Sequence record: NC_028840.1
Length of the DNA: 64,000 nt
Reading direction: 5' to 3' (one strand)
Source of the DNA: Escherichia phage slur09
The notes below the pieces were generated by a model. It was not told the DNA's origin. It searched no databases and saw only the letters and a list, made by a program, of their open reading frames with translations. A program made the translations under genes and the position numbers. Positions within the stretch are counted from its first letter, which is position 1. Every line of letters starts with the position of its first letter. Of this stretch, positions 8,704 through 26,932 are shown piece after piece.

Positions 8704-9161
8704 CAGCACTACAACAACTACAGAATTACTGGTTTGATAACCAATTTAACGATCTTTTCATCCAGTTGTTTGTCGAAACGAACGGACGCTTCAACTACCG
8801 ATTCTTTAACAAGTTTCACGAAACAAAATTCTCGCATACAGAAATTAATGCAGCGATCCAAGACCTAACTGGTTCTAAAGTAGTTCAATATCGTGAAGTA
8901 GACTTTACACCAGATTGTTTCGGGTTTGAATTGTTTAAGAAAGCATATAAATTTGGTAAGTTTGAGGATGCTCGTCAATGGGTTCATGATTTCTGGTACA
9001 ACACTGATATTGTTCCTAGTCGTGTACTGATTCTTAACTGGATTGCCAAACAACATCCGCCTAAAGCTCAATCGTCCTTCTTACCAACTGATACAGGAAA
9101 CCTCTACCATGACAGAAAAGAAAAATCCATTATTGGAGCAGATGAAGGAGTGGGAGAGTAA
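8700..9161 (+). CDS. hypothetical protein
   Basis: 153 aa ORF, start overlaps upstream stop. Confidence 0.5.
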   Translation: MTALQQLQNYWFDNQFNDLFIQLFVETNGRFNYRFFNKFHETKFSHTEINAAIQDLTGSKVVQYREVDFTPDCFGFELFKKAYKFGKFEDARQWVHDFWYNTDIVPSRVLILNWIAKQHPPKAQSSFLPTDTGNLYHDRKEKSIIGADEGVGE

Positions 9162-9480
9162 TATTGAAACTGGTCTAATAGACGGTGAAGATATTGTCAA
9201 CTCCATGCTAGAAGTAACAGTAGATAACATTAATCCTATTTTGGCTGGAGAAACCTCAGATCTTATAGGACTCTCTAGCACATTTGATTCTTTGGCTAAA
9301 TTAGCTTTAGACGATGAAGAGATAACCAAAGAAGATCTCGCTACAGCTATGAATATGGCTATTAATGCTTACATCGGTAAACGTACTGATGAACTTGGTA
9401 AACAGATCAATAAGCGTGATGCTACGCTAGGTCTTATGGAAACGGCCACTATGTTAAGAAGTGGTAAACAACTTCATTAA
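9142..9480 (+). CDS. hypothetical acidic protein (start uncertain)
   Basis: Track ORF 9043-9480; ATG 9142 has GGAG 5 nt upstream; alternative ATG at 9109. Confidence 0.4.
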   Translation: MKEWESNIETGLIDGEDIVNSMLEVTVDNINPILAGETSDLIGLSSTFDSLAKLALDDEEITKEDLATAMNMAINAYIGKRTDELGKQINKRDATLGLMETATMLRSGKQLH

Positions 9481-9486
9481 TTTTAG

Positions 9487-9517
9487 GAGGCCAGGACTTA
9501 GTTGTTCTGGCCTTTTG
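9487..9517 (+). terminator. rho-independent terminator
   Basis: Hairpin GGCCAG/CTGGCC followed by TTTT. Confidence 0.5.
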
Positions 9518-9540
9518 AGTACATATAAAAGGAGACTATA

Positions 9541-9774
9541 GTGGAAATTGTATTAATTATTCTTGCAATAGCACTATTATTTGCAATCAGCATATCTATT
9601 AAAAAGACTCGTGATCTTAATAGGACTATAGATGATAACAGAAAACTACGTGGTGAAAAGGCTAGGCTTAACCTACAGCATGAAGCTCTGAAGTTATTTG
9701 TAGTTCAGGGCAATAGAAACCATACTCCTGAAGATTTTATTAAACAGCTTAAAAAGCACTTAGGGCTCAAATAA
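9541..9774 (+). CDS. small membrane protein (GTG start)
   Basis: 77 aa, N-terminal TM helix; RBS AAAAGGAG upstream. Confidence 0.4.
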   Translation: MEIVLIILAIALLFAISISIKKTRDLNRTIDDNRKLRGEKARLNLQHEALKLFVVQGNRNHTPEDFIKQLKKHLGLK

Positions 9775-9959
9775 TGGAAACTCTTTTTCTTTTAATGCTC
9801 GTAGGTTCTCTGTTACTAATACTAGCACTTCTACTAATCTGCAACATTCTTAACAACAAGAATCTAGAGTTAAAGTGCGAAAACCAAATCCTTAATCGTG
9901 AACTTAAACAATATAATCTAGCAGCACATAAACTGTTAGACAAACTGGAGAATAAATAA
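9774..9959 (+). CDS. small membrane protein
   Basis: 61 aa, N-terminal TM helix plus coiled coil. Confidence 0.4.
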   Translation: METLFLLMLVGSLLLILALLLICNILNNKNLELKCENQILNRELKQYNLAAHKLLDKLENK

Positions 9960-10570
9960 TGTTTACACAACAACCTATTCAAGTAGTACCAGACCATGAA
10001 CTGAACACATGGGATTATAGCTTTAAAGATTTAACTGCTACTATACAATTCAAATCTATGAAGCTAACATTTGCACACACTGACCTTAGAGCATGTAAAG
10101 ATCTTGAAGGTAAGCTCGAAGATGCTCGTAAGATTTTTGGCACGGCTCGCATCCCGGCTGATAACCTGATTAATGCACTGATCGATGCAGGATACAAACT
10201 AGTGAAGGCTGAGGTTAACCGTCCTAGTACTCCTGTAACTATTAGAGATCCGTGGCAGTCAGGGACAATCTCAATGCTGAGTAACTCCGATAAAAGGTTA
10301 ATGTCGGATATGCACAATGTTCCTTGTGGGGGTGTGGTAAGTAGTACGAAGTCATATAAGTTTGGGGAAGATTACGGCCCTTCTGTACAGTTGAAACATA
10401 CTCAAGAAGCTTTTGAATCTGATATGCGAAGCGTAGCACCTGCGGATGCTGAAGGTTTTAAAAGTCCCCTCTATGTTACTCACTTTAATAATCTTAGACC
10501 TGGGAGTATAAGTGATACTATCCTTGAAGCGTTGGGAGCTGCTATTAATGAAGATAAGAGGGGTAATTAA
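9959..10570 (+). CDS. hypothetical protein
   Basis: 203 aa ORF, RBS GGAGAA. Confidence 0.5.
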   Translation: MFTQQPIQVVPDHELNTWDYSFKDLTATIQFKSMKLTFAHTDLRACKDLEGKLEDARKIFGTARIPADNLINALIDAGYKLVKAEVNRPSTPVTIRDPWQSGTISMLSNSDKRLMSDMHNVPCGGVVSSTKSYKFGEDYGPSVQLKHTQEAFESDMRSVAPADAEGFKSPLYVTHFNNLRPGSISDTILEALGAAINEDKRGN

Positions 10571-11295
10571 TGAGTATAAAAAAGAATTTAGCAGAGATTA
10601 TTAAATTAGCTAGAGCTTGTAATGGGAAATGTGTTTCTCAGCTTAATGAGTTAGAGGCACATGCAGTGGCATTTTGTGCAGAGTTCTATCCTGCATACAT
10701 TAATGCTAGTGGACAACCTAAATATAATAAAGATGCAGAAGAAGTTACGTTAGCTCCTTCTTATATTAGTATACGTCGTCTGATTCAAACTGTTGATCCG
10801 ACTATTAAAGGATTTTCAGCAGATTCATTCCATGTCTTTGCTGATAAAGAACTCCCACATTTTAAAGAAGGAAGTGCAAAGACAGCCCTAGAATGTTATC
10901 CTAAGATTTTGATGATTCCACCTAAGCAATGTAAATACGATCATCTTCCTAGACTTACAAAGAAAGTAGAACCACCTTATTCTTCTCTATCTGAATTAAA
11001 GCTAGGAATTGTATCGACACTTGCGCAGGTTCATCTAAGTATAGTTGACGACTCAACAACATCTAATCCTATTCTAGATGCTGCACACTTTGAAATTTTA
11101 CGTGATCCTGAACAAGCTAGAAAAGTTGCAAAGTCTGTTAAGTTTGATATAGCAACAATTCTTGACACTAAACAAGAAACTAGACCTAGAGGAAGTGTAG
11201 ATTATTCTGCGCTAAACTCCGAGTCATCTTACTTAGCAACATTCCTTTTCATGGCGTCAAAAGGAGTTATTCTAAAGGTTAATAAAGATGGATGA
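10570..11295 (+). CDS. hypothetical protein
   Basis: 241 aa ORF. Confidence 0.5.
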   Translation: MSIKKNLAEIIKLARACNGKCVSQLNELEAHAVAFCAEFYPAYINASGQPKYNKDAEEVTLAPSYISIRRLIQTVDPTIKGFSADSFHVFADKELPHFKEGSAKTALECYPKILMIPPKQCKYDHLPRLTKKVEPPYSSLSELKLGIVSTLAQVHLSIVDDSTTSNPILDAAHFEILRDPEQARKVAKSVKFDIATILDTKQETRPRGSVDYSALNSESSYLATFLFMASKGVILKVNKDG

Positions 11296-12016
11296 TTTAC
11301 GTGCTGAAATTAATAAAAAGCTACGCGAGGAAGCCAGGAGGTTTCCTCTTAAAAACTTTTTGAAGTCAAATGGCTCTACTAATATAACGAAGATTAGGCA
11401 ACTTCACCCTGACTTCCAACAAGAGGCCTTAAACCTTATCTTTATTAGGAAAGCTTTAAAAGTCCAGAAAGAAGAGTATGGGTATGAAAGAGTTAATTAT
11501 AAGACAGCCAATCAGTTAGTAGAGATATGGTGCTATAAGCATAAAGGATACTTTATGCAAACTGCTAGATCTCACCTAGATGGGCACGGTTGTTTACAAT
11601 GTGCTAGAGAAAGCAACCTCAATACACCTATCGAGAAACCGGAAGTAGAAGAAGATGTTCAATTTCCCACATATCTCTATATCTTCTCTAATAAAGATCA
11701 GTCTAGGAAGAAATTAAAGACAAAGATTGGGGTTTCTAGAGAGCCACATCAAAGGTTTAAGAATCTAGAGTATGATAAATTGCGTGTGCCGGGTTTTGAA
11801 GATATGGAAGTATTTGGTATCTACCAGTACAAGAAAGGATCGAAAGAACTTGCTTACAAAATAGAACACCAAGCACATAAATTTTTCGAGAATAAATTTG
11901 CTAATCATTATAAATTCGATGGAGCAAAAGAGATATTCAATATTAAAGCTGTAGAGGCAGAAAAATATCTATTAAGTCAAGGTTGCATAAAAATTTACCC
12001 AACTCCAAACTCATGA
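11288..12016 (+). CDS. T5orf172-like / GIY-YIG-like domain protein with Cys/His cluster
   Basis: 242 aa; CYKHKG...HGCLQCARE cysteine cluster followed by YLYIF...KIGVSREPHQRFKN, which resembles GIY-YIG-like cores. Confidence 0.4.
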   Translation: MDDLRAEINKKLREEARRFPLKNFLKSNGSTNITKIRQLHPDFQQEALNLIFIRKALKVQKEEYGYERVNYKTANQLVEIWCYKHKGYFMQTARSHLDGHGCLQCARESNLNTPIEKPEVEEDVQFPTYLYIFSNKDQSRKKLKTKIGVSREPHQRFKNLEYDKLRVPGFEDMEVFGIYQYKKGSKELAYKIEHQAHKFFENKFANHYKFDGAKEIFNIKAVEAEKYLLSQGCIKIYPTPNS

Positions 12017-12043
12017 CGAAAATTTAAAAGTAACGAAATTTGC

Positions 12044-12073
12044 TTGACATTCGTGAGAATAATGTGTTATAAT
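12044..12073 (+). promoter_or_regulatory. near-consensus sigma70 promoter firing into coding-free repeat region
   Basis: TTGACA-N18-TATAAT immediately after stop of 11288-12016; no ORF with RBS downstream for about 1.7 kb. Confidence 0.55.
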
Positions 12074-12516
12074 AATCTCATAGATTAAAAACATCAACTT
12101 GTTTTTACCTCTAGGCCGTAGATTTACATCATTCCTCGTAGGAAAACACTTGATGACGGTTCTGCTCGCAGGTTCTCGTCAATTGTTCTTCCACACCGAG
12201 ACTTAGGAGGATGTATCAAATCGCACGCGCCTAGAGGGGCTAACTCTCATGAAATGGGGGTATATTTACTTTTAAATAACTAAAAATATTTAAAGGCAAT
12301 ATCTGTGTTCAAGATGATACACCTGTTGCCGCTCTTCTGCTAGGATGGCACAACACTTTTCTAGAAACTCCAGAGTTCTCACGAAATACTCACCCTTTCT
12401 AGGGCGGTTCTCCTAAGTTTCCAGGAACATATACTAGGCGGTTTAATACAGGGCGGTTATTGGGAGGGGGGTTATTTCTATAAGACATTTTTCCAAAACA
12501 CATTTCCAGAAATTAC

Positions 12517-13117
12517 TGTCGGATTTGCACACTGACATAAGTTTAAAAACTGGTCGGATTTGCACAATGACAGGAGTCTCCTAAGTTTTTAGGAACGCTG
12601 AAAATGGCAGCATTATTTCGGGCCGAAGGCCCATGATTGCCTGAGTTTTTAGAGCCACAGAAATTTTCACTTGTCAAGCTATTTTGCCCCATTTAGCTAA
12701 TAAAATTTTACTTTTTCTGCACTTATCTCAAATTAACCCAAATCTTCTCAACTCTTCTCCAAAATCCCCGCAAATCAGGTGCTCCGCACCAAACATGCGC
12801 CCCTCTCGCAGTTCCCCCAAGTTTCTCTCGATCTCTCATCCTCTCCTCAAACCCATACAATCACACACCCTCCAATCGAAGTCACAAAAATCTTGTCGGA
12901 TTCGCACATCTTAATCCTAGAAAAACCGTGTCGGATTTGCACATATCCCACAGGATTCGAACGCAGTTCGTGATTGCTGGAGTTTTTAGGAAAATTCATT
13001 GTCGGATTCGCACACTATAAAAATTTTTCGGGTCGGATTTGCACACTACCAAAAATTGTCGGATTTGCACATACACGCCCACGCGTAATCCAGGGGGGCA
13101 AATGTCGGTTTTGCACA
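12517..13117 (+). repeat. eight direct copies of 15-mer (T/G)GTCGGATT(T/C)GCACA
   Basis: Copies start at 12517, 12552, 12894, 12929, 13000, 13031, 13057, 13103, all same orientation, in loose pairs; region also holds TCCTAA-N4-TTAGGA palindromic motifs at about 12410 and 12580. Confidence 0.85.
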
Positions 13118-13120
13118 AAA

Positions 13121-13142
13121 GCGCAGGGCAATTGCCCTGCGC
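13121..13142. repeat. perfect 22-bp palindrome GCGCAGGGCAATTGCCCTGCGC
   Basis: Read directly; sits right after the last 15-mer copy. Confidence 0.9.
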
Positions 13143-13149
13143 TAAATAC

Positions 13150-13335
13150 GAATGATAATAAGAATCATTCTCATTTAAAAAGCGGAATGAGAATGATAAT
13201 AATTCGCATTTAGAAAGTGAAATGAGAATTATTCAGGAAGTGAAACGATTCTCATTTAAAAAGTGAAATGATTATTAGTTAGATAGTGAAATGCGAATGA
13301 TACTGATTTGCATTCAAGAATGGAAGTGAGAAACA
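13150..13335 (+). repeat. short degenerate tandem repeats of type AGTGAAATGAGAAT
   Basis: About six units (gcggaatgagaatga, agtgaaatgagaatt, agtgaaacgattctc, agtgaaatgattatt, agtgaaatgcgaatg, ggaagtgagaaacac) read by eye. Confidence 0.6.
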
Positions 13336-13347
13336 CTGTTATTTAAG

Positions 13348-13430
13348 TTATCCACAGACTTATTAACAGCACGATTTGACTTGACAGAATCCTAGCCATT
13401 TTGAGGCGTTATTAACAGACTTATCCACAG
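13348..13430 (+). promoter_or_regulatory. two exact DnaA-box 9-mers TTATCCACA
   Basis: 13348-13356 and 13422-13430. Confidence 0.5.
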
Positions 13431-13438
13431 CTTATCCT

Positions 13439-13458
13439 ACTGTATAAATATACAGTAT
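13439..13458. promoter_or_regulatory. LexA-box-like palindrome TACTGTATAAATATACAGTA
   Basis: CTGT-N8-ACAG with AT-only spacer and TA flanks; one spacer difference from my recalled SOS-box consensus TACTGTATATATATACAGTA. Confidence 0.45.
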
Positions 13459-13822
13459 TCCTACGCAGTGAATAATTCTAATATAGCGTTAAAACGTCCT
13501 AGATCGCATTCTAACGCGTTTAATTTTGGTGGGGATACTAAAACACGGGCAAAATTGGAGGAGGCTTGAAAATTAGTTAGCACGCTAACGATCACACAAG
13601 GCGACACGTAACACCCTAACCATTAGCAGGCTAACCATCGCGGGCGCGGTCAAATGAGAATGATTCTCATTTGAGAATTGGGGCACTTCCTGATAGTTGC
13701 GCCCCGTGATTATTATAGTAGTGGGCAACCGTTACGCTTTGCCCACTCCCGCCACTCATCTTGATGCCTAGACTTGCGACGGCGTACTAAAAACCGCTTG
13801 TACCAGTGATTAAACCATCGTT

Positions 13823-14026
13823 TCATAAATCCTCCTCCGGTAGTCGATGCGTGATCTTCTCCTCTTCCCCGTAGGAGTCTACCAAATGCTGATAATAACC
13901 ATCGTGATCATAAATCACTTTATCATACTCGCCACGCTCGACCGCTTGTCGGTTTTCCGGCGTATCAGGCACATAAAAAACGTCTACCGTTGTGGTAGTT
14001 TTGGTTACAACAATTTTATTGCTCAT
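13823..14026 (-). CDS. small acidic protein, unknown function
   Basis: 67 aa ORF, acidic C-terminus (GEEEKITHRLPEEDL). Confidence 0.45.
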   Translation of the reverse strand: MSNKIVVTKTTTTVDVFYVPDTPENRQAVERGEYDKVIYDHDGYYQHLVDSYGEEEKITHRLPEEDL

Positions 14027-14041
14027 ACTAACGCTCCGTTA

Positions 14042-14149
14042 TTAAAAATTACCGTATATTCCCGGCCAAATTTTACTAGTAACATAAGTTACTATTCCTG
14101 CCGTAATTATGCTGTAAACTACTAACAAGATAAACATTAAACCAGACAT
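14042..14149 (-). CDS. 35-aa hydrophobic membrane peptide
   Basis: Hand-translated MSGLMFILLVVYSIITAGIVTYVTSKIWPGIYGNF; RBS GGAGG upstream; below track length cutoff. Confidence 0.4.
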   Translation of the reverse strand: MSGLMFILLVVYSIITAGIVTYVTSKIWPGIYGNF

Positions 14150-14174
14150 AATACCTCCTCGTAAATATATAATC

Positions 14175-14519
14175 TCATTGCGCCACCTTTCGAAACGCTG
14201 TTTCAATACTATCCGCAGTGGATTGAATATACGCGCCTTTCATTATCAGGCGCTCAGTGCATACTTTGCGGAAAATATTAATAAAATCATCTTCATTTTC
14301 TGCAATTAATGCTTCACCCATAACTTGAACGTCACAAGATGCAAAAGTCAAAAATTGAAATGCTAGTTCACGGGCAACGACCGCATTAATTTTATAATGC
14401 GCCTTGCCCTCATAAATATTAATAACGCCCTTATAAGCTGGGGAAAGCTGATTTAAATAGTTTGCTAATAATGCCGGACGGCAATTAGCAACAAAGCGAT
14501 TGCCTTCATAAATAACCAT
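14175..14519 (-). CDS. hypothetical protein
   Basis: 114 aa from ATG 14519, translationally coupled to upstream gene (TAAaATG); track extends to 14558. Confidence 0.45.
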   Translation of the reverse strand: MVIYEGNRFVANCRPALLANYLNQLSPAYKGVINIYEGKAHYKINAVVARELAFQFLTFASCDVQVMGEALIAENEDDFINIFRKVCTERLIMKGAYIQSTADSIETAFRKVAQ

Positions 14520-14520
14520 T

Positions 14521-14733
14521 TTATAGCACCCCACGAAACGCAGCGTAAAAGGTGGCAAAGTGTTTAACCGTTTCAGCGATCACGTTGCCGCGCTTATCAA
14601 ATTTTTTCTCAGTAACACGAAAGGCATTTTTATTACGTGCTACATATTCGATTCTACAATCTTCCCGCTCGAACGTGTTAACATCCACCAGCTTAAAGCC
14701 TTTCGAACGTGCAAGAGAAACGTTGCGGATCAT
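14521..14733 (-). CDS. hypothetical basic protein
   Basis: 70 aa ORF; start immediately after stop of membrane peptide. Confidence 0.45.
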   Translation of the reverse strand: MIRNVSLARSKGFKLVDVNTFEREDCRIEYVARNKNAFRVTEKKFDKRGNVIAETVKHFATFYAAFRGVL

Positions 14734-14735
14734 TT

Positions 14736-14885
14736 TTATTCCCCTTTACTAGTCATGCAGCCCAGCAGATAAGAAAATACAGCGATACCCGCGCCGATAA
14801 TAACCGCGTGAACGCCGAAAGCTATTGCAAATAATGATAAAATAGCGCCCAAGATACCTGCTAGAATAGCTCGAAAAATAACCAT
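14736..14885 (-). CDS. 49-aa hydrophobic membrane peptide
   Basis: Hand-translated MVIFRAILAGILGAILSLFAIAFGVHAVIIGAGIAVFSYLLGCMTSKGE; RBS AGGAGG upstream. Confidence 0.45.
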   Translation of the reverse strand: MVIFRAILAGILGAILSLFAIAFGVHAVIIGAGIAVFSYLLGCMTSKGE

Positions 14886-14934
14886 TTGTGATAGCCTCCT
14901 AGTTATCGGGGGATATAATATCCCCCGCTATTAA

Positions 14935-15165
14935 TTACATTAAAACAATTTTTGCCGCTTGTTTTTTGGTACAGTGTTCCGCTTTCAGGGTATCCAGTAA
15001 AAAGCCAGCCGTTTGCTGATCGATTTTATCAGCGTTATATAGTTCCTGAATGGTATTATAAGTTTTAGCAATGCCGAACTCCTGCACCATTTCATATATG
15101 ACAGCGCGATTAGATACCCAACCTTGAGCGGTAAACAGATGACTAGCAGAAGAATAAGCAACCAT
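14935..15165 (-). CDS. hypothetical protein
   Basis: 76 aa from ATG 15165 behind GGAGGC; track ORF extends to 15243. Confidence 0.4.
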   Translation of the reverse strand: MVAYSSASHLFTAQGWVSNRAVIYEMVQEFGIAKTYNTIQELYNADKIDQQTAGFLLDTLKAEHCTKKQAAKIVLM

Positions 15166-15228
15166 TTTAAGCCTCCAAATTTTTGGGAAAATTTTCAATC
15201 CACCGTTTTGGTGTAAAGGCATTATAAC

Positions 15229-15256
15229 AAAAAAGGCCGCCATAAAAGGCGACCTT
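15229..15256 (-). terminator. rho-independent terminator (minus strand)
   Basis: Hairpin GGTCGCC/GGCGGCC followed by T-run on minus strand. Confidence 0.5.
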
Positions 15257-15270
15257 TACAAAACTTTACA

Positions 15271-15765
15271 TTAAACTACCTGTAAGGATTCAATATTGAA
15301 ACATCGTTTCAATTCGTCATGCAAAACAGCGTATTCATCCCATCGGGTACTATCAGGAATATAAACAAGCTGCTTTAACCGGTTTGCATATATTACCGCT
15401 TTGTTATCAATTATCTCGACGCCACCATGTTTAATAATTAATTTTATGACGGAATTAATAGGATCGCCGCCGTTTACATATGTGCCGGATTTACTTAACT
15501 GATAATGATAAAGGCTTGCATATACGTTTTCATTTTCATACCATTCGCCCGATTCCTCGTCCTCATAACCGTCACTACCAAAACGAGAAGCGTTATCAAT
15601 AGCCATTTCATGAGCGAAAGCGTCCAGATCACAACCAGCGGGAACAAAGTGTTCCTCCGTCCAACCTTCTCCGCAATAACCAGTATGACAATCGACCAAA
15701 ATGATCATATCATGTTTTGCCGTGCTCACTTCTCCCAGTGAGAAGCCATATTTTTCTTCTGGCAT
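15271..15765 (-). CDS. strongly acidic protein, unknown function (anti-restriction candidate, inferred)
   Basis: 164 aa from ATG 15765 behind AGGAGG; about 29 Asp/Glu versus 12 Lys/Arg by hand count. Confidence 0.5.
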   Translation of the reverse strand: MPEEKYGFSLGEVSTAKHDMIILVDCHTGYCGEGWTEEHFVPAGCDLDAFAHEMAIDNASRFGSDGYEDEESGEWYENENVYASLYHYQLSKSGTYVNGGDPINSVIKLIIKHGGVEIIDNKAVIYANRLKQLVYIPDSTRWDEYAVLHDELKRCFNIESLQVV

Positions 15766-15829
15766 AATTAGCCTCCTATTAATTAACAAGGGAATAGTAA
15801 AGCGGGGTAATAATCCCCGCTTAGTATTA

Positions 15830-16822
15830 TTACTCGCTTTCGGTGTTAGTTGTAAAAGTAGAAATATCGATACCTTTTACCATTTCATCAATCATCTCAG
15901 CGATGTTAAAACTTTGTACCATTTCCAGCATTGCCGCTTCCATAGCCGCTCCTGCTACCGCTTTCGCTTTCTGGTTATTTGGGGCGTACTGGTCAACCGC
16001 TACACTCAGCAGGTTAGCGATCACTACTCGACCGATAGGCGTATCAATATAACCTTTAATCATAAATGGCGCTTTTTTAGCCACTACTTTCGTGATTTGA
16101 GTTAGTGCAATTTTACCCGCTTCCAGTTTTGCAGCGTTTACAACAGCGGATTTATTAGCGGCAACGATGTTAGCAATCTTGGTCATGGTGTTTTTTCCTT
16201 TGTTTTCAGTAGTTTGAGTGTTAACGCTTTGAGTGTTAGAATTTACAGTATGTTTTTCTATACTGTCAATAGGCTGATTTTCATCTTTCCAGAACGTAAA
16301 GCCGGCTTCTTCTATCAGATCATTATAAACATACGGGCATAATTCCGACGGTAGCAAAAAATTACCGTTATCATCAAAAGCCATTACAGCCGCAAAACGA
16401 TACCCGTGATAATCTGACTTATTCCACCCAAGTGATAAATAACGCCAAAATGAATCGAGAAAATTTTCTACGTCATAAAGATCTTTATCATAAGCCTCAT
16501 AGTTTTCTATTGTGAAAACTTCTAAGCCCGCCCCAGCATCATAGGCTTTTACTGTATTGCCTTTTACTATGATAAAATCAGCATCCGGCCCCCGACTAGT
16601 AAGCAAGTGGGACTCCTGATTATATAAAACAAGCGTTGCCCCTTGTTTATATAACGGTAGAAAACTATTCATATTATAAGCATCATAATCATCAAAAAAA
16701 TTATGATGAATAGTTTCAATATTGAAAACAAAATGTTTAATGCTGGTTGTCCTGCTACCGTCCAGCAGGTTGCGCAATGCACCTTTTAAAACGGTAGCGT
16801 TATCAGGTTTATAAAGCCTCAT
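15830..16822 (-). CDS. hypothetical protein (largest gene of cassette)
   Basis: 330 aa; RBS GAGGGGGG; N-terminal Tyr/Asp-rich half and Ala/Val/Lys-rich C-terminal half; no recognisable motif. Confidence 0.5.
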   Translation of the reverse strand: MRLYKPDNATVLKGALRNLLDGSRTTSIKHFVFNIETIHHNFFDDYDAYNMNSFLPLYKQGATLVLYNQESHLLTSRGPDADFIIVKGNTVKAYDAGAGLEVFTIENYEAYDKDLYDVENFLDSFWRYLSLGWNKSDYHGYRFAAVMAFDDNGNFLLPSELCPYVYNDLIEEAGFTFWKDENQPIDSIEKHTVNSNTQSVNTQTTENKGKNTMTKIANIVAANKSAVVNAAKLEAGKIALTQITKVVAKKAPFMIKGYIDTPIGRVVIANLLSVAVDQYAPNNQKAKAVAGAAMEAAMLEMVQSFNIAEMIDEMVKGIDISTFTTNTESE

Positions 16823-17086
16823 TTGTTGGCCCCCCTCGTTAATCGGTGAGTGAATGATATAGATATTTGTTCACTAGGGGCAAGAAAAAAGAAAATGTTT
16901 TTTATTCCTTGCCTAGCGCCTATTTTTATGATAGCCGCGCAGCGGTGTAATAAAGAGCAAAACACGGCGAAGCCACCAGGCCGTCGCATTGAGGCTTTGC
17001 TTTAGTATTACCTAACAGCGTTTAGCTCGTTAGAATGCGATTTAGGCCGCTTAAAATTGATTGCAGTCGTTAACACTACCTTTTTA

Positions 17087-17106
17087 CCCTGTATATTTAT
17101 ACAGTA
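17087..17106. promoter_or_regulatory. LexA-box-like palindrome CCCTGTATATTTATACAGTA, upstream of minus-strand cassette
   Basis: Inverted copy of 13439-13458; about 265 bp upstream of the start of 15830-16822. Confidence 0.45.
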
Positions 17107-17114
17107 GGATAACC

Positions 17115-17196
17115 TGTGGATAAGTCTGTGCAAAAGTTCTTATATCGCCGCCTATCATGTCAAGCCAAAAAGTGCTGTGGATAACTTTGTGGATAA
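17115..17196 (-). promoter_or_regulatory. three exact DnaA-box 9-mers (TGTGGATAA on plus strand)
   Basis: 17115-17123, 17176-17184, 17188-17196; further near-matches at 17448-17456 and 17473-17480. Confidence 0.5.
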
Positions 17197-17937
17197 CTTA
17201 AATGATAGTGTTTCTCACTTAGGCTAATGATTTCTTATAGTTATTATTTCTCATTAATTTATATGTATATAATATATTATGTAATAGTTAGTTGGCTAAT
17301 GAGATTTTCCGTGATTAATAGTCTGCTATTAATTCAGGCCGTTACAATCCACCAGCATGACCATCATCCTAGCAATTATTAGTCTGCTATTCTTCCAATA
17401 CACACTAGCAAATAAAAGTCAATTAATTTATTTTATAAAATAAGTAGTTATCCACTGGAAAATAAAAGTCAAGTGGATAACTAGGAAAATTTCATTTTTG
17501 CTTTGGGGATAAGTTATCAACAAGGCTAGAATGCGCCTAAAACGCTCCAGAACGCGATAAAGTTTTAGGCCATCCCATCATAAGGGGATAGGCCGTTTAT
17601 CGCTACCACGAGCTTTTTAGATTTTGTCAAGTAGGGCAAAGCAAATATAAATGAAAAAATTACTTGCCTATCTGCTTTGTTTTGTGGTATTCGCGCGCCC
17701 GTTTCTTTTAATTTTAATGCGCCGTGCCCAGGTCGCCGCACGGTGTCCGGTGGCGTTTGTCTTTACGTTTCTTTACAAAAATAAGGTTGCGCCATTTTCG
17801 GGAATCCCCTATTATTTATCACGTAGGGCGGCAATGACGAACTACACGGCGGGAAGTTTACCGCCACGCTCTTTAAAAATTGGGTATATCTTAAAGCCTA
17901 TCGGCGGTAAACTTATTTATTATAAGGAATCGACGAT

Positions 17938-18141
17938 ATGAAACAAACTTTATTGATCACTGGCAAGCCTAGCAAGGCACTAGATAGCAAAACAAAAGAT
18001 TTGTTGACAGTAGCGCAAAGATCGGTAAAATATCGATTTAAGCAGTACAAGAAAGGTCGCCAGCAAGGTCTGGAAATGATCTGGCGAAATATTATGATTG
18101 ACCTGAAAGAAAATCATAAAAAATCTCAAAAAATTGTTTGA
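17938..18141 (+). CDS. small basic protein
   Basis: 67 aa ORF with RBS AAGGA. Confidence 0.45.
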   Translation: MKQTLLITGKPSKALDSKTKDLLTVAQRSVKYRFKQYKKGRQQGLEMIWRNIMIDLKENHKKSQKIV

Positions 18142-18372
18142 CAACCTAGCCGATAGGTTTTAAGATGTACCCAGTTCGATAAGAGCGATAACTTGATAAA
18201 ATTTGACGGTCGGCACTTACCATAATGTGTCCCGCCCCCTAACTGGGATATAGCGGCCCGTGTGGAGTTCTTTAAATTGATTAAACTGGCGAGCGGATTG
18301 TTACTTATTACCTGCTGTTACTTTCTAGCAGGTAATGCGGAACAATCCCCTAAATAACTCGGAGTTTATACT

Positions 18373-18624
18373 ATGCAAAACGTTATCACCGCGCCTAAAA
18401 TTGGTCAATCCGTCTTCATTCCTTTCGTTACTAAAACGGATGAATTAACCGGAAAGGCCGAACGCATTAAAGGTGCGGCGCTTATGCCGTTCGATACAAT
18501 CGACGCGGTATATGCTGAAACTGAACGCAGTAACAACGGCAAGCCTGTTTTTAGCGTTCGCGTTAAATCCGGTGACGTTGTAAAGGTTGTTCAACGTAAC
18601 GAAAAATGGGAAGCTGTATTATAA
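18373..18624 (+). CDS. hypothetical pre-early protein
   Basis: 83 aa; preceded by AATCCCCTAAAT...GGAG leader motif. Confidence 0.5.
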   Translation: MQNVITAPKIGQSVFIPFVTKTDELTGKAERIKGAALMPFDTIDAVYAETERSNNGKPVFSVRVKSGDVVKVVQRNEKWEAVL

Positions 18625-18722
18625 ATTAGTGTTAACTTTATATCCCCCTTATTTCAGGGGGATATAACGATTAACATTAAGTTAATCTAATCCCTTAAAT
18701 TAAACTAATAGGAGTTTATATC

Positions 18723-19130
18723 ATGACTAACGTTAAAACCGCAAAATTCGCATGGAATGAAGAAAACACTCAAAAAGCTGTTTCCATGTATCAACAGTTA
18801 ATCAATGAAAACGGTTTAGATTTCGCAAATAGCGACGGCCTGAAAGAGATTGCAAAAGCAGTAGGCGCGGCTTCCCCTGTATCCGTTCGCTCAAAATTGA
18901 CCAGTGCAAAAGCCTATCAAAAAAGTGATAAGCCTCGTAAAGTTGGCGGCGGTAGCTCTGTGCGTAAAGCTCACTATGTGCGCGTTATTGCTAAACATGC
19001 TATCGATTCCGGCATTATTAAAGACGCCGACGATCTGGCAAGTCTGGAAAGTGCAAAACTTGAAACGCTGGACGCAGTAGCGCAACTGTTAGGCGTTGCC
19101 GATGAAGTAAAACAAGCCGCAGGCGAATAA
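18723..19130 (+). CDS. hypothetical pre-early protein
   Basis: 135 aa; preceded by AATCCCTTAAAT...GGAG leader motif and hairpin 18638-18667. Confidence 0.5.
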   Translation: MTNVKTAKFAWNEENTQKAVSMYQQLINENGLDFANSDGLKEIAKAVGAASPVSVRSKLTSAKAYQKSDKPRKVGGGSSVRKAHYVRVIAKHAIDSGIIKDADDLASLESAKLETLDAVAQLLGVADEVKQAAGE

Positions 19131-19222
19131 TAGTTATATCTTGCCCCCTTTTAGTGAGGGGGCAATAATATAACTGTTTAGCGATAGTTATTTTCTTCCC
19201 TTAAATCAGGAGTTTTAAAAAA

Positions 19223-19420
19223 ATGATTTTCTTTCCTACTGAATCATTAATTCTAGGCTTGTTTATTATGGCGGCCTCATTATTATTTGCTTATTTTCAG
19301 AATGATTTAGATTCATATTATTTTAAACGTAAATCTAAATTAGCAAAGCGTTTAGGTCTGCTTTGTTTTATCGCTGCCGTTGCTTGTGGTGTTAGTTCTA
19401 GCCTAGTGCCTTTAAATTAA
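19223..19420 (+). CDS. small membrane protein
   Basis: 65 aa with two hydrophobic segments; CCCTTAAATCAGGAG leader. Confidence 0.45.
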   Translation: MIFFPTESLILGLFIMAASLLFAYFQNDLDSYYFKRKSKLAKRLGLLCFIAAVACGVSSSLVPLN

Positions 19421-19510
19421 TGTTGCAAATTATAACGCCTATTACTTGAGGCGTTATATTTGGCAATATTGCCGTTATTAATCTAATCCCTTTAATGGAG
19501 TTTTATTACT

Positions 19511-21175
19511 ATGATTATTTCCGCAGAAAAACAAACCGTTATCCTGAAAATGGCCGCTGACTTTAATTTCTATGGTAAACGTCTGCGCGCTACTAAACTG
19601 GAAGTCTGCGACGATATATCAAAAGCGGTCTACGATACCACTAAACACTCTACCGCCATTTGTGATTGGTTGGAAGCGAATAAACCAGCTAAACCGAAAG
19701 CGGCAAAAGTAGCAAAAGCCATTAAAAACGATGAGCGCCCAGAAGCGGCGGGAATTGTTTCTAGTACGGTTGAGCAATGGGAAGTAAAACAGGGTAAACG
19801 CTTTATTATTACGTCGATTCAAAATAATACTTTCCCGCATAAAAACTTTTTAGCAAGTCTGGAAAAATTCGCTGAATATATCGGTGCTGATTTGCTTGTT
19901 TCTAAGTATATTTATAATAAAAACGGCTTCCAGAATGGAGAAGGTGCAGACGGTATCAAATACGATCCCGCATTTGATAAATATATTTGCAGCAAAAACG
20001 TGTTTTTAAATAACCGCCGTTTTGCTTTCATGGCTGAAATTAATGTTTTGCCTACCGCAGACTATCCGCTTTCAGGATTTGCAGAAACTGCAACGGCTTT
20101 AAATATTGAAGGGCTGGCAATTGGTCACGCTAAAATTACCGCTGAAAGCGTGCCAGCTTTAAAAGGTGAAGTAGTGCGCCGTATGTATTCAACCGGAACG
20201 ACAACGCTCAAAAACTACATTCAGCAGAAAGCAGGACAAAAGGCCGAGGCGCTGCATAACTTCGGTGCGCTTATTGTTGAGTTCGACGACGACGGGGAAT
20301 TTTTTGTTCGCCAGCTTGAAACGATGGATGAAAGCGGGGTGTTTTATGATCTGAATGTTTGCGCTACTCCTGCTGGATGCTATGAAACGTCGGGGCATGT
20401 TTTAGGCTTGCAATATGGCGATATTCACGCCGAAAAATTAGATGATGATTGTGCCGTTGCGTCATGGGCTGGCGAAAATAGCTTGCTTGATATTCTTAAA
20501 CCTAAATATCAGTTTATTCATGACGTGCATGATTTTACATCGCGCAATCATCATAATCGTGCGTCCGGTGTATTCCTAGCAAAACAGTACGCCGCAGGAC
20601 GTGATAAAGTTCTGGATGATCTTATCGATACCGGTCGCGTGCTGGAATCAATGGAACGCGATTTTAGTCAAACGATTATCGTAGAATCTAACCATGATCT
20701 AGCGTTATCCCGTTGGCTAGATGATCGTAATGCTAACATCAAAGACGATCCAGCAAACGCCGAGTTATATCACCGCCTGAATGCTGCAATTTACGCGGCA
20801 ATCGGTGAACATGACGAGACGTTTAACGTGCTAGATTATGCTTTGCGCAAGGTTGCAGGTTGTGAGTTTAACGCCATTTTCCTGACCACTGACCAATCTT
20901 TCAAGATTGCAGGCATTGAATGCGGCGTACACGGTCACAACGGCATTAACGGTAGCCGTGGCAATCCTAAACAATTTAAGAAATTGGGCAAGTTAAACAC
21001 GGGGCATACGCATACCGCCAGCATTTACGGCGGCGTATACACCGCTGGCGTAGCTGGTAGTCTGGATATGGGCTACAACGTTGGCGCGTCAAGCTGGACG
21101 CAAACGCATTTAATTACCTATGCAAACGGTCAGCGTACTTTGATTGACTTTAAAAACGGTAAATTTTTCGCGTAA
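19511..21175 (+). CDS. A1: A1-like pre-early protein (metallophosphoesterase-type nuclease)
   Basis: 554 aa, matching recalled T5 A1 size; GDIHAE, GHNG and GHTH phosphoesterase-like motifs; followed by A2-like and Dmp-like genes. Confidence 0.6.
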   Translation: MIISAEKQTVILKMAADFNFYGKRLRATKLEVCDDISKAVYDTTKHSTAICDWLEANKPAKPKAAKVAKAIKNDERPEAAGIVSSTVEQWEVKQGKRFIITSIQNNTFPHKNFLASLEKFAEYIGADLLVSKYIYNKNGFQNGEGADGIKYDPAFDKYICSKNVFLNNRRFAFMAEINVLPTADYPLSGFAETATALNIEGLAIGHAKITAESVPALKGEVVRRMYSTGTTTLKNYIQQKAGQKAEALHNFGALIVEFDDDGEFFVRQLETMDESGVFYDLNVCATPAGCYETSGHVLGLQYGDIHAEKLDDDCAVASWAGENSLLDILKPKYQFIHDVHDFTSRNHHNRASGVFLAKQYAAGRDKVLDDLIDTGRVLESMERDFSQTIIVESNHDLALSRWLDDRNANIKDDPANAELYHRLNAAIYAAIGEHDETFNVLDYALRKVAGCEFNAIFLTTDQSFKIAGIECGVHGHNGINGSRGNPKQFKKLGKLNTGHTHTASIYGGVYTAGVAGSLDMGYNVGASSWTQTHLITYANGQRTLIDFKNGKFFA

Positions 21176-21196
21176 TTAAATTATTCCCCTAGCGGC

Positions 21197-21487
21197 TTGA
21201 AATATAGCCGCTATTACAGGAGTCAAAAAATGAAAGTTACATTGCCCAAAACATTGGACGAAAAAGTATTCATTTCACCGGATGAAATGGAATCCGATAA
21301 AGTTTACCGCTTCGGGCCTATCCTAGCCGCCAAAACTAATACTGATGGCATTATTTCCGTCGATTCCCGTGATAATGATATTGTTCCTTTTGATGACGAT
21401 AGCGCTTTTTATGAGTGGTTAAGCGATAATAATTTACCCGTAAACGGTGAAATAACGCCGTATCAAATGCAGATTATTATTAAATAA
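21197..21487 (+). CDS. hypothetical pre-early protein
   Basis: 96 aa ORF. Confidence 0.45.
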   Translation: MKYSRYYRSQKMKVTLPKTLDEKVFISPDEMESDKVYRFGPILAAKTNTDGIISVDSRDNDIVPFDDDSAFYEWLSDNNLPVNGEITPYQMQIIIK

Positions 21488-21523
21488 TTTAAATCCCTTA
21501 TTAAACTATTTGGAGTTATAAAC

Positions 21524-21925
21524 ATGACTAAATCTAACCGCATCCCATTTGACCGCGCTCAATCTTCCTTAATTCTGGTTTATTCTAATGGTCAGCGTTA
21601 TCACGTTGAATCAGGTCACGTTGTTGATGATTTGCTGGAATTTAACGAAGCCCTACAGGTTACAACGTTTGCTTATACCACTGGTAAATTATCCAGCCGT
21701 ATCAAAGCAAAAGGCGTTTATGTTGATACTATTAAGCAAGAAACAATTATTGTGGATGCTCTTAAATCCGGCCTTGCTTTCGTTGTTGTCACACCTTGCC
21801 CCGCTTGCCTTGATGATCAATTGATGAGTGCGAAAGTGTTTACATGCGCCGGGATTCGTTCTAGTGTACATGGTGAAGATATTAGCTTTATTGCCGATGC
21901 TCTCGCTTTTGGTCTGGCGTTCTAA
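21524..21925 (+). CDS. A2: A2-like pre-early protein
   Basis: 133 aa gene immediately after A1-like gene; assignment by size and position only. Confidence 0.45.
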   Translation: MTKSNRIPFDRAQSSLILVYSNGQRYHVESGHVVDDLLEFNEALQVTTFAYTTGKLSSRIKAKGVYVDTIKQETIIVDALKSGLAFVVVTPCPACLDDQLMSAKVFTCAGIRSSVHGEDISFIADALAFGLAF

Positions 21926-22013
21926 TAGTTAATTGAACATAGCCCGCTAATAAAATATAATTAGCGGGCTAGATTGAATTAACCTAAATCCCTTAAATGG
22001 AGAATGTAACAAA

Positions 22014-22748
22014 ATGAATAAAGCTATCATTAATTCTTTCCGTGCTTTCCCGCAAATATCCCGCGTCATGATTTGGGATTTAGACGGCACTATCATTAAT
22101 TCTTTCCATCGTGTAGCGCCTTGCTTTGATAGTGAGGGCAATTTAGATTTAAATAAGTATAAAAATGAAGCCTGTAAACATGATTTAATAATGCAAGATA
22201 CCTTGCTACCGCTTGTTGTTTATATGCGTGAGTGTATGAATGATGTAAATACACTAAACATTATTTGCACCGCTCGACTAATGAGCAAATCAGATTATTA
22301 CTTCCTACGCAAACAAGGCTTGCGCGGTCGTGGTAATAGCAATATCCGCGTATTTTCCCGCGATACACTGCATAAATACTTTGAAGCTGATAAGGTTAGC
22401 GAAATATATCACAGCAAAGACGCAGTATATAAAAGTTATTACTTTGAACTATTTAAACAGTTATATCCTAACGCTGATTTTACGATGATTGATGATCATA
22501 AAGGTGTATTAGCGGCGGCGGCATCATACGGATTTAAAACGCTGGACGCTCAAGCTATTAACGATATTCTATCAATCGGTGTTGCAATGATAGGTGAAAC
22601 CTTTATTGATGAATCCCTCGATGATGATAATGATTATCAATTCCTAGCTGACCGCTTAAAGCTATGCTGGGAAGGTATGACCGAGGAAGAACGCGCAGAA
22701 TATAGTTGCAGCCCGCAACAATATATTGAGAAATTAAAAGTTGCGTAA
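22014..22748 (+). CDS. dmp: 5'-deoxyribonucleotidase (HAD-like), Dmp-like
   Basis: 244 aa; HAD motif I VMIWDLDGTII near N-terminus; size matches recalled T5 Dmp. Confidence 0.6.
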   Translation: MNKAIINSFRAFPQISRVMIWDLDGTIINSFHRVAPCFDSEGNLDLNKYKNEACKHDLIMQDTLLPLVVYMRECMNDVNTLNIICTARLMSKSDYYFLRKQGLRGRGNSNIRVFSRDTLHKYFEADKVSEIYHSKDAVYKSYYFELFKQLYPNADFTMIDDHKGVLAAAASYGFKTLDAQAINDILSIGVAMIGETFIDESLDDDNDYQFLADRLKLCWEGMTEEERAEYSCSPQQYIEKLKVA

Positions 22749-22765
22749 TAATTAAAGTTGAAATA

Positions 22766-22802
22766 GTTTCATCCTGCGATTAAAATGGTTGCAGGATGAA
22801 AC
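22766..22802. terminator. bidirectional hairpin between dmp and minus-strand HNH gene
   Basis: 12-bp stem GTTTCATCCTGC/GCAGGATGAAAC. Confidence 0.5.
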
Positions 22803-22921
22803 AATTACCCTGCTAATAGTAACGGGGGTGGCGGTTAGCAGACTAAGTATTCTCCCCCAACCCACTGGACACACCCACGCGTACGTAATCCAAAGAATTT
22901 GGCAAAAGTCAATTAGCGCTA

Positions 22922-26449: not shown

Positions 26450-26932
26450 ATGGCAAATGATGTATTAGTACCAGATCTTATGTCCCCTGAAGGGATGGAT
26501 GTAATTGAAGCTTATTTACAGTGTGGTAGCGATGTGCCTTCTGCCGCACGTAGTCTTGGAATGTCCGAAATTGCTTTCCGAGATATTATGAATCGTAGTG
26601 AAGTTAAGAACTATTTAAACGATATTTTTATGGAAAGTGGTTTCCGTAACAGAGATCGTTTGTTCGGTGTTCTAGATGAAGTTATTAAACGTAAGCTGGA
26701 GGAACTGGAAGAAACTGGCATGGGTTCTGACCAGGATATTATGGATATTCTATGGAAGGCACATAAAATGAAGATGGAAGAGATGAAAATGATGGTGGAG
26801 CTAGAAAAAGCTAAAGCTGCCGTCCGAGCTCCTGCTAGTCAGACCAATATCCAGAATAATATTATTGCTGGAGCCGGGGATCAAAACTACATGGACTTAA
26901 TTACTTCCCTAGCTACTGGAGGTAAGAAGTAA
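26450..26932 (+). CDS. putative terminase small subunit / DNA-binding protein
   Basis: 160 aa directly upstream of terminase large subunit; assignment by position only. Confidence 0.35.

Follow-up and report, generated by a model that had tools for sequence, protein, structure and literature searches.

The junction between early and pre-early genes

Escherichia phage slur09 (NC_028840.1), of which a window of 64,000 nucleotides was analysed, carries between its early and pre-early genes a long noncoding gap filled with direct repeats, palindromes and tandem repeats. Its limits are the stop codon, at 12016, of an open reading frame (ORF) of 242 aa and a small ORF on the minus strand at 13823-14026, making it larger (12017 to ~13822) than the 12040-13335 proposed in a first-pass annotation of the sequence, with DnaA boxes (13348, 13421) and two further palindromes lying beyond those limits. 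The end of the terminal repeat is also contained in the gap, and its first 250 bp are probably not inert, holding a promoter and a structured RNA (see below). Upstream lie early-type genes and downstream, within the terminal repeat, the pre-early genes A2 (18723-19130), A1 (19511-21175) and dmp (22014-22748), in keeping with the first view of the gap as separating an early module from a pre-early block.

The most prominent element is a 15-mer first described as eight same-strand copies of GTCGGATT(T/C)GCACA, which both a pattern search and a repeat finder confirmed. The form GTCGGATTYGCACA occurs exactly at 12518, 12553, 12895, 12930, 13001, 13032 and 13058, with a one-mismatch copy, GTCGGTTTTGCACA, at 13104, all on the plus strand and with start-to-start spacings of 35, 342, 35, 71, 31, 26 and 46 nt between the eight copies given by the repeat finder. 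Allowing up to one mismatch there are ten matches in the whole 64-kb window against 0.01 expected, those at 10303 and 53892 being the only two outside the gap.

A protein-coding explanation of the gap was considered and rejected. The seven largest ORFs (35-79 aa) are intact in just 2-11 of 14 close relatives, being broken by stops or frameshifts in others, T5 itself included for several, with the DNA nearly invariant across the 14 genomes; the earlier statement that the gap has no credible ORF agrees with this lack of conservation. In the alignment of these genomes the region 12300-13720 is more conserved than its coding flanks.

Identity with repeat region 3 of T5

Sequence comparison identifies the gap, almost certainly, as the slur09 copy of T5 repeat region 3, the noncoding junction at which the 10.2-kb terminal repeat ends (12651/12652). 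By local BLAST the window is collinear with T5 (AY587007) in reverse orientation with one collapsed terminal repeat, T5 position 1 corresponding to window position 22871 and the last base of T5, 121752, which is the end of the right repeat, to 12652. The repeat of ~10.2 kb (12652-22871) is present once in the assembly, and past 22871 follows the unique right arm with llp, pb5 and terminase and then the head and tail genes. The gap itself aligns with T5 9242-10528 at 83% identity, and megablast matched it to 454 phage records, nearly all of them Salmonella or Escherichia T5-like phages, the best at 92-94% identity. The collinear alignment and the matching T5 annotations bear out the initial expectation of a T5-type injection-stop or terminal-repeat boundary.

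In the T5 record AY587007 the 15-mers are annotated as 'direct repeat D', with copies 1-9 in the junction and copies 10-12 elsewhere, such that a motif at first taken to be unrecognised had already been catalogued. The eight slur09 copies in the gap are positionally orthologous to copies 1-8, and the copy at 10303 is copy 10, which lies in ORF019. The end of the repeat is annotated at 10139 in the same record (AY587007), while AY543070 labels 9140-10149 as 'injection stop signal (iss)' and places a nick at 9748/9749. In the Davison preprint the block is termed 'Repeat Region 3' with 'nine DRD repeats' and paired DnaA boxes 3 bp apart, and it is proposed that membrane-bound DnaA holds the first-step DNA, stopping transfer (Davison preprint).

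Repeat region 3 of T5 (AY587007 9194-10409; AY543070 iss 9140-10149) and the slur09 junction agree in the identity and order of their elements throughout. Both run from direct repeat D through the repeat end, direct repeat A, a second block of direct repeat D and the nick with palindrome J to direct repeat C with palindromes E-I, the D'-spacer-C' element with its DnaA boxes, palindrome D and palindrome C. The identity of the block is 83-88% and the repeat-end sequence is the same. The two phages differ in the number of direct repeat D copies in the junction (nine in T5 and eight in slur09), in palindrome J, which is perfect in slur09 and imperfect in T5, in the early gene flanking the junction, a homing-endonuclease-like ORF in slur09 and ORF018 in T5, and in the hairpin-RNA cassette beside that gene, which is of a different sequence type in each.

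The junction is a correct rediscovery of a region already annotated in the T5 GenBank records. The literature on T5 repeat region 3 and on the stop in injection reportedly runs from Heusterspreute in 1987 and Wang in 2005 to Davison in 2015 and 2020. The region was sequenced in 1987, upwards of 450 phage genomes on deposit have it, and as found it is of little importance. The halt of T5 DNA after 8% and the restart of its transfer by A1 and A2 have lacked an explanation for more than 50 years, and papers of 2023 and 2026 still call the T5 stop signal uncharacterised.

Conservation of the 15-mer across the family

Across the 14-genome alignment the 15-mers are invariant, and the spacers internal to the pairs (12533-12552, 12568-12578 and 12909-12927) vary by substitutions and indels. 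Distant relatives were reached with the A1 protein as guide and the junction was read in six of them, namely Klebsiella GZ8 (Demerecviridae; Sugarlandvirus; A1 identity 72%), Erwinia KEY (Demerecviridae; Markadamsvirinae; 66%), Serratia Slocum (Demerecviridae, in a record without genus), Proteus phage 1 (Demerecviridae; Novosibvirus; 42%), Vibrio Ceto (Demerecviridae; Ermolyevavirinae; Cetovirus; 32%) and Vibrio D258 (unclassified in its record; 34%). All six have the same junction order, in which an early gene, promoter, array, nick-type GCGC element and AT-rich repeats are followed by DnaA boxes, a CTGTATA..TATACAG palindrome and the pre-early genes.

The core T[TA][TC]GCAC is present in 6-10 copies on one strand and in none on the other in seven lineages (slur09, T5, Klebsiella GZ8, Serratia Slocum, Erwinia KEY, Vibrio Ceto and Vibrio D258), and TTYGCAC is retained on a single strand from E. 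coli to Vibrio phages. The enterobacterial lineages retain the 5′ flank (G/A)TCGG(A/T), with GTCGG conserved in four of them to the same degree as the core; in the Vibrio lineages another flank takes its place, for example TAGAATTTGCACCTAT or AGGTTTCGCACAT. The spacing of the 15-mer-like copies differs by genus, being 26-71 nt in slur09, 27 in GZ8 and 15 in Ceto. Proteus phage 1 has one clear 15-mer-like copy, directly before the nick motif, and carries other repeat arrays instead.

Away from the junction, two adjacent 15-mer-like copies, GTCGGATTTGCACC and GTAGGTTTTGCACA, lie at 53892-53921 on the plus strand, antisense in the exo2/D13 gene, and are the equivalents of copies 11 and 12 of T5 direct repeat D, with T5 nick 4 at a distance of 370 bp. 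The opposite strand at this place encodes a VQNLQ/VQIRQ peptide that is repeated in a coiled-coil protein, so that coding may be a sufficient explanation of the pair.

The array at the end of the terminal repeat

The end of the terminal repeat, which is the right genome end in the virion, falls within TTTTTA/GAGCCACAG (12646-12660, cut 12651/12652), a position predicted by BLAST homology to the T5 right repeat. The annotated repeat ends of T5, MM-1, SPC35 and SIA3lw all lie at TGAGTTTTTA/GAGCCACAG, and the window has the identical sequence at 12651/12652. In Klebsiella GZ8 the repeat ends at TTTTTTAG/GAGCCACAGG in otherwise diverged DNA. Situated 18 bp outside the slur09 end is a GC hairpin, GGGCC-GAA-GGCCC (12622-12634), read from the sequence, which is identical in T5, MM-1 and SPC35 and has one change in SIA3lw.

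The 15-mers lie on both sides of this end. The outer pair (12518-12532 and 12553-12567, plus strand; T5 direct repeat D copies 8 and 7) is outside the terminal repeat, and the inner cluster of six, starting with the copy at 12895 and reaching to 13118 (plus strand; copies 6 to 1), is inside it. The array brackets the repeat end in all four lineages with mapped ends, that is the T5-like phages, GZ8, Slocum and Ceto. Measured from the end, the copies of the T5-like phages lie outside at ~-270 (in T5, SPC35 and SIA3lw only), -134 and -99 and inside from +243 to +454, those of GZ8 from -213 to -132 and from +135 to +332, and those of Ceto at -173 and -146 and from +115 to +300. In Slocum, where the end is at 12521, the first outer copy is at 12640 and the last inner copy at 12257. 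Several complete IMG/VR genomes end ~245 bp past the nearest motif copy.

It is on balance probable that the 15-mers are docking sites for one phage-encoded, sequence-specific DNA-binding protein acting at the genome end and/or at the transfer pause, as predicted from their arrangement and conservation. The eight same-strand copies would dock this protein, and the two clusters would bracket the exact point at which the virion DNA end is made, so that the array could act in cis on end formation, on the pause and restart of DNA transfer, or on both. The nick site, hairpin, AT-rich palindromes and DnaA boxes would then constitute a pause module. That the repeats might be a binding-site array for a phage or host protein had been suggested before, and conservation, strand purity and variable spacers strengthen the array part of that reasonable, if still hypothetical, suggestion.

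Candidate binding proteins

The leading candidate, put forward tentatively, is the small subunit of terminase, for which the 15-mers would form a pac-like array placing the cut at TTTTTA/GAGCCACAG. Its gene lies at 26450-26932 (phrog_3802, E = 3e-90) and is called sciB in T5 records, after single-chain interruptions. No Pfam family was found for the protein, and a PDB sequence search gave three chance-level matches (E 0.15-0.82). The terminase reading requires packaging to start at the junction end since the other end of the repeat (22871) is without 15-mers.

The pac sites of P1 and SPP1 have motif clusters flanking the cut site, and it is to this geometry that the slur09 junction is likened. 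With these sites and the cosB of lambda it shares clustered short motifs beside, or on both sides of, a virion-end cut, the two slur09 clusters lying ~100-250 bp either side of a conserved cut sequence. In contrast to them, the slur09 array is remote from the terminase genes and without a counterpart at the second end, binding by the small subunit is only putative, and the genome ends in exact direct repeats of 10 kb, being neither headful nor cohesive. Pac sites commonly, if not universally, adjoin the terminase genes, which the array does not; it does lie at the site of the virion end. Another parallel is found in T7, whose short-repeat arrays SRL and SRR are said, since Dunn and Studier in 1983, to flank the T7 terminal repeat. 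There too short-motif arrays stand beside a direct terminal repeat, DNA entry is staged and the function of the arrays is unresolved, but T7 has a 7-bp motif, a 160-bp repeat and arrays at both ends, and there is no sequence relation with slur09.

The second candidate, a close one and only a little more doubtful, is the pre-early protein A2, which might load on the array to restart transfer. A2 matches the 'DNA binding protein' family phrog_1725 and has a putative helix-turn-helix recognition helix, S..SVR(S/T)KL, in which S51, V55, R56, K58 and L59 are invariant at 41-66% overall identity; a single-sequence model (pLDDT 75.8) has two three-helix bundles. A2 is essential, being needed for second-step transfer alone, with its DNA target unknown (2026 preprint). 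A Pfam search of A2 and A1 found no family and a PDB sequence search with A2 no match.

Several points weigh against a dedicated phage protein at the array, or against one or other candidate. The Foldseek matches of the A2 model are weak, all with E > 0.4 (Myb, homeodomain, TnpE and CENP-B DNA-binding domains), and A2 as binder leaves unexplained why the genome end sits within the array. The terminase small-subunit gene is ~14 kb from the array, and a window-wide motif search found no 15-mers at the other repeat end (22871). The start of packaging at the junction end is deduced solely from the general last-in-first-out rule, with the opposite packaging polarity stated for T5 (PMC3517423). Some of the relatives' repeat ends were possibly annotated by homology to T5 rather than measured, and host DnaA may contribute since the core matches the DnaA box at 7-9 of nine positions (see below).

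Taking the candidates together, the junction could be a single cis control centre run by phage proteins (the terminase small subunit 'SciB', whose gene has a genetic link to nicking, and/or A2) that sets the end cut, the first major nick by way of the two-part signal CAYNYGTAA-N31-R/GCGC, and the pause and restart of transfer, with the first-entering early promoter firing a hairpin RNA into the junction; this too is held only tentatively. For testing, the short conserved core TTYGCAC provides a probe motif and the two named proteins provide candidate binders, with the two-part nick signal and the probable early hairpin RNA being further elements for any model of the junction.

DnaA boxes and resemblance to replication origins

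The gap contains an inverted repeat, D'-spacer-C' (13347-13440, plus strand), with paired DnaA boxes 3 bp apart. The pairs read TTATCCACA-GAC-TTATTAACA and TTATTAACA-GAC-TTATCCACA, with the boxes at 13348/13360 and 13409/13421. The inverted partner of this element at 16995-17220 is T5 repeat region 2 and has four DnaA-type boxes on the minus strand (17123, 17135, 17184 and 17196), such that the two slur09 elements together give the eight-box DnaA arrangement described by Davison.

The 15-mers might themselves be low-affinity DnaA boxes that load host DnaA together with the four canonical boxes ~250 bp away, which would extend the Davison model. Compared with TTWTNCACA the 9-mer within the 15-mer matches at 9/9 positions in the 13104 copy, 8/9 in five copies and 7/9 in two, and the TTYGCAC(A) conserved across the family coincides with box positions 2-9. 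The 15-mers are also co-oriented with the true boxes at 13348 and 13421, which with the 9-mer match is unlikely to be pure chance; DnaA specificity is shared among all the hosts, and a DnaA model of the region has been published (Davison). The constraint on the 15-mer is, however, not that of a DnaA box: N5, which a box leaves free, is invariably G, T4, which a box requires, is often C, and position 1 is usually A. In enterobacterial phages, moreover, the GTCGG beyond the box is conserved no less than the core. Proteus phage 1 has kept canonical DnaA boxes and lost the array, and intracellular binding ought to draw the DNA inward instead of halting its entry. The pattern of constraint and Proteus phage 1 argue against DnaA boxes as the whole explanation, and this reading is kept as an unlikely, minor rival to a phage-encoded binding protein.

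An iteron-type replication origin, in which the direct repeats bind a phage initiator such as the UL9-like D2 helicase, appears more improbable still. Plasmid or P1-type origins do have a similar layout, with repeats all on one strand, DnaA boxes, a block rich in AT (here 13150-13314) and a strong promoter pointing toward them, and T5 D2 is a homologue of herpesvirus UL9 with a predicted helix-turn-helix (PMC3632103). The D2 gene lies outside the slur09 window. TTCGCAC is common to the core of the UL9 origin-binding box, GTTCGCAC, and that of the 15-mer variant GATTCGCACA (cf. 13104-13118), a lead only and one that may be coincidence. Against an iteron origin, the origins of T5 lie near the genome centre (Davison, citing electron-microscopy studies), the spacing is irregular (26-71 nt plus a 342-nt gap) and genus-dependent, and the array adjoins no initiator gene, its neighbours being the homing-endonuclease-like ORF and small pre-early ORFs. 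Furthermore, the genome end splits the array and leaves its right-end copy truncated.

More generally, DnaA-box clusters (oriC, datA) and iteron origins (P1 oriR, RK2 oriV) are like the slur09 junction in having same-orientation repeats beside DnaA boxes and an AT-rich block, and the slur09 core resembles TTWTNCACA as in DnaA-box clusters. They differ from it in their constraint pattern, in the conserved 5′ flank and irregular spacing of the slur09 repeats, in the lack of an adjoining initiator gene and in the disagreement with published origin positions.

Palindrome J and the nick signal

Two bases past the last 15-mer, at 13120, is the nick motif AGCGCAGG, which opens the palindrome AGCGCAGGGCAATTGCCCTGCGCT (13120-13143, plus strand), the equivalent of T5 palindrome J, with a predicted nick at 13120/13121. 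The palindrome had first been given as a perfect GCGC-containing one of 22 bp; it is indeed perfect, with a length of 24 bp. The consensus for the major nicks of T5 is R/GCGCRGG (PMC3517423), and palindrome J overlaps 'major single-stranded nick 1, 7.9%' (AY587007). On the plus strand of the window R/GCGCRGG occurs at 305, 13120, 50071 and 54281; the first of these is orthologous to T5 nick 2, that at 13120 to nick 1/5 and that at 54281 to nick 4. Nick 1 is the only nick with a 15-mer beside it.

The nick motif is preceded by an upstream box, CACGCGTAA (13080-13088, plus strand), 40 nt away start to start. At all four distinct major nick sites of T5 the sequence CAYNYGTAA lies ~31 nt upstream of R/GCGCRGG, and this box may be the 'additional sequence' that earlier authors held necessary for nick recognition. 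The two-part pattern has four matches in the window, all on the plus strand (at 266, 13080, 54243 and 22876), against 0.23 expected, with the two-part nick signals themselves spanning 266-312, 13080-13127 and 54243-54288. By count alone the 12-mer CACGCGTAATCC is not significant (three matches against 2.2 expected), such that it is meaningful only through its fixed distance to the nick motif. At 22876-22919 (plus strand), 5 nt outside the left repeat end (22871/22872), the fourth of these two-part signals reads CACGCGTACGTAATCC...N...AGCGC, and its T5 equivalent, CATGTGTAATC...AGCGC, is at the start of the right repeat.

Palindrome J was perfect in 11 of the 40 locus occurrences scanned, which gives the 7-nt motif on both strands, the minus-strand copy being without an upstream box. 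In relatives the stem is kept through compensatory changes (GGGGGGCAATTGCCCCC) with variable loop lengths (five loci), a pattern of sequence conservation that suggests a hairpin. The palindrome may also be a weak terminator of rightward pre-early transcription, given the short T-run that follows it on the minus strand.

The conservation of this stem bears on whether a dedicated protein is needed, since DNA structure in the form of bends, cruciforms and the nick hairpin might stall passage through the tail channel, or the conservation of the region might merely reflect recent common ancestry. The compensatory changes and variable loops at 13120-13143 fit a hairpin better than a dimer-binding site, and many palindromes are clustered just before the nick. 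The 15-mer, on the other hand, lacks symmetry, keeps to one strand and has been conserved between Escherichia and Vibrio phages whose A1 identity is only 32-34%, while neighbouring spacers and coding flanks diverged, which is not the behaviour of a structural element; and direct repeats do not form cruciforms. An explanation without any dedicated protein is accordingly regarded as highly improbable beside the docking of a phage DNA-binding protein.

A predicted hairpin RNA on the early-gene side

Between the last early gene and the repeats lies a sigma-70 promoter, TTGACA-18-TATAAT with an upstream TG (12044-12073, plus strand), which matches the consensus at 12/12 positions and points from that gene into the junction. 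It is followed by a predicted structured RNA of ~195 nt (12080-12275, plus strand) in which a small hairpin at the 5′ end precedes an imperfect one ~130 nt long and, at 12243-12261, a terminator hairpin with a U-run. The minimum free energy of the fold is -64.2 kcal/mol (z = -5.6), with none of 200 shuffles as stable. T5 has at the same place a non-homologous sequence with the same fold (z = -6.3), and a promoter and long hairpin are likewise found there in GZ8, Slocum, KEY, Proteus phage 1, Ceto and D258 (z -2.1 to -6.2).

Six sequence types were recognised among T5-like loci, all with a common RNA architecture. The interiors of the stems share no homology from type to type, which left no basis for deriving a consensus fold from aligned sequences, and the types were compared by per-type folds. 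In the four types with a recognised promoter the plus strand is usually 4-17 kcal/mol more stable than the minus strand; three compensatory changes occur within one type, and the 5′ hairpin co-varies between types. The region 12044-12275 is thus a probable promoter-driven gene for a long-hairpin RNA, as modelled from these folds, which is family-wide and hypervariable in sequence and has so far gone unannotated. No annotation of the RNA at 12080-12275 is present in the two T5 records examined and none surfaced in a literature search. The sole hit of Rfam 15 in 11800-14300, to rliI at 13115-13180, was below threshold, scoring 24 bits where the gathering score is 45, and a tRNA search found none. 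A scan of viral contigs with a 15-nt motif from the RNA start returned mostly chance matches.

The last early gene (11288-12016, plus strand) is homing-endonuclease-like (phrog_4605 and HNH/endonuclease families) and has no DNA match in T5. As both it and the hairpin-RNA cassette differ from T5, the two may travel together.

Other repeats and palindromes

Upstream of the outer 15-mer pair are four AGGGCGGTTAT-type repeats (12403-12476, plus strand), read from the sequence, which are nearly invariant among the 14 genomes and recur at the same relative place in Erwinia KEY, Klebsiella GZ8 and Proteus phage 1. The perfect palindrome TCCTAAGTTTTTAGGA, of the form TCCTAA-N4-TTAGGA (12579-12594), is conserved in relatives. 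Several such operator-like palindromes had been noted in the first-pass annotation, of which this one is perfect and the others degenerate, with a two-mismatch copy at 12411, looser ones at 12640 and 12977 and an inverted one at 12373; their window-wide count is not significant (five against 1.3 expected, a number reached in 4 of 100 shuffles). Further on, CT-rich short repeats at 12728-12765 (plus strand) are T5 direct repeat A copies 2 and 3.

Past palindrome J the AT-rich tandem repeats and palindromes (AATGMGAATNATTCKCATT; 13150-13314) are the counterparts of copies 1-4 of T5 direct repeat C and of palindromes E-I. The tandem repeats reported at the outset are present at 13150-13298 with periods of 23, 35 and 46, and AATGMGAATNATTCKCATT has six matches against 0.18 expected, all of them inside the gap within 13157-13671. 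The AT-rich palindromes at 13157-13314 and 13653-13671 have the form AATGAGAAT-S-ATTCTCATT. They differ at one position per half-site from an idealised Fur box (AATGATAAT-C-ATTATCATT). The T5 receptor FhuA is iron-regulated.

The DnaA boxes are followed by the palindrome ACTGTATA-AA-TATACAGT (13440-13459), which is T5 palindrome D and follows DnaA boxes also in Vibrio Ceto and Proteus phage 1. The palindrome TCAAATGAGAAT-G-ATTCTCATTTGA (13650-13674) is T5 palindrome C, a putative terminator in the T5 annotation. Unrelated to the junction, self-BLAST detected an internal tandem duplication in a late gene at 47671-47885, with a 42-nt offset and 79% identity.

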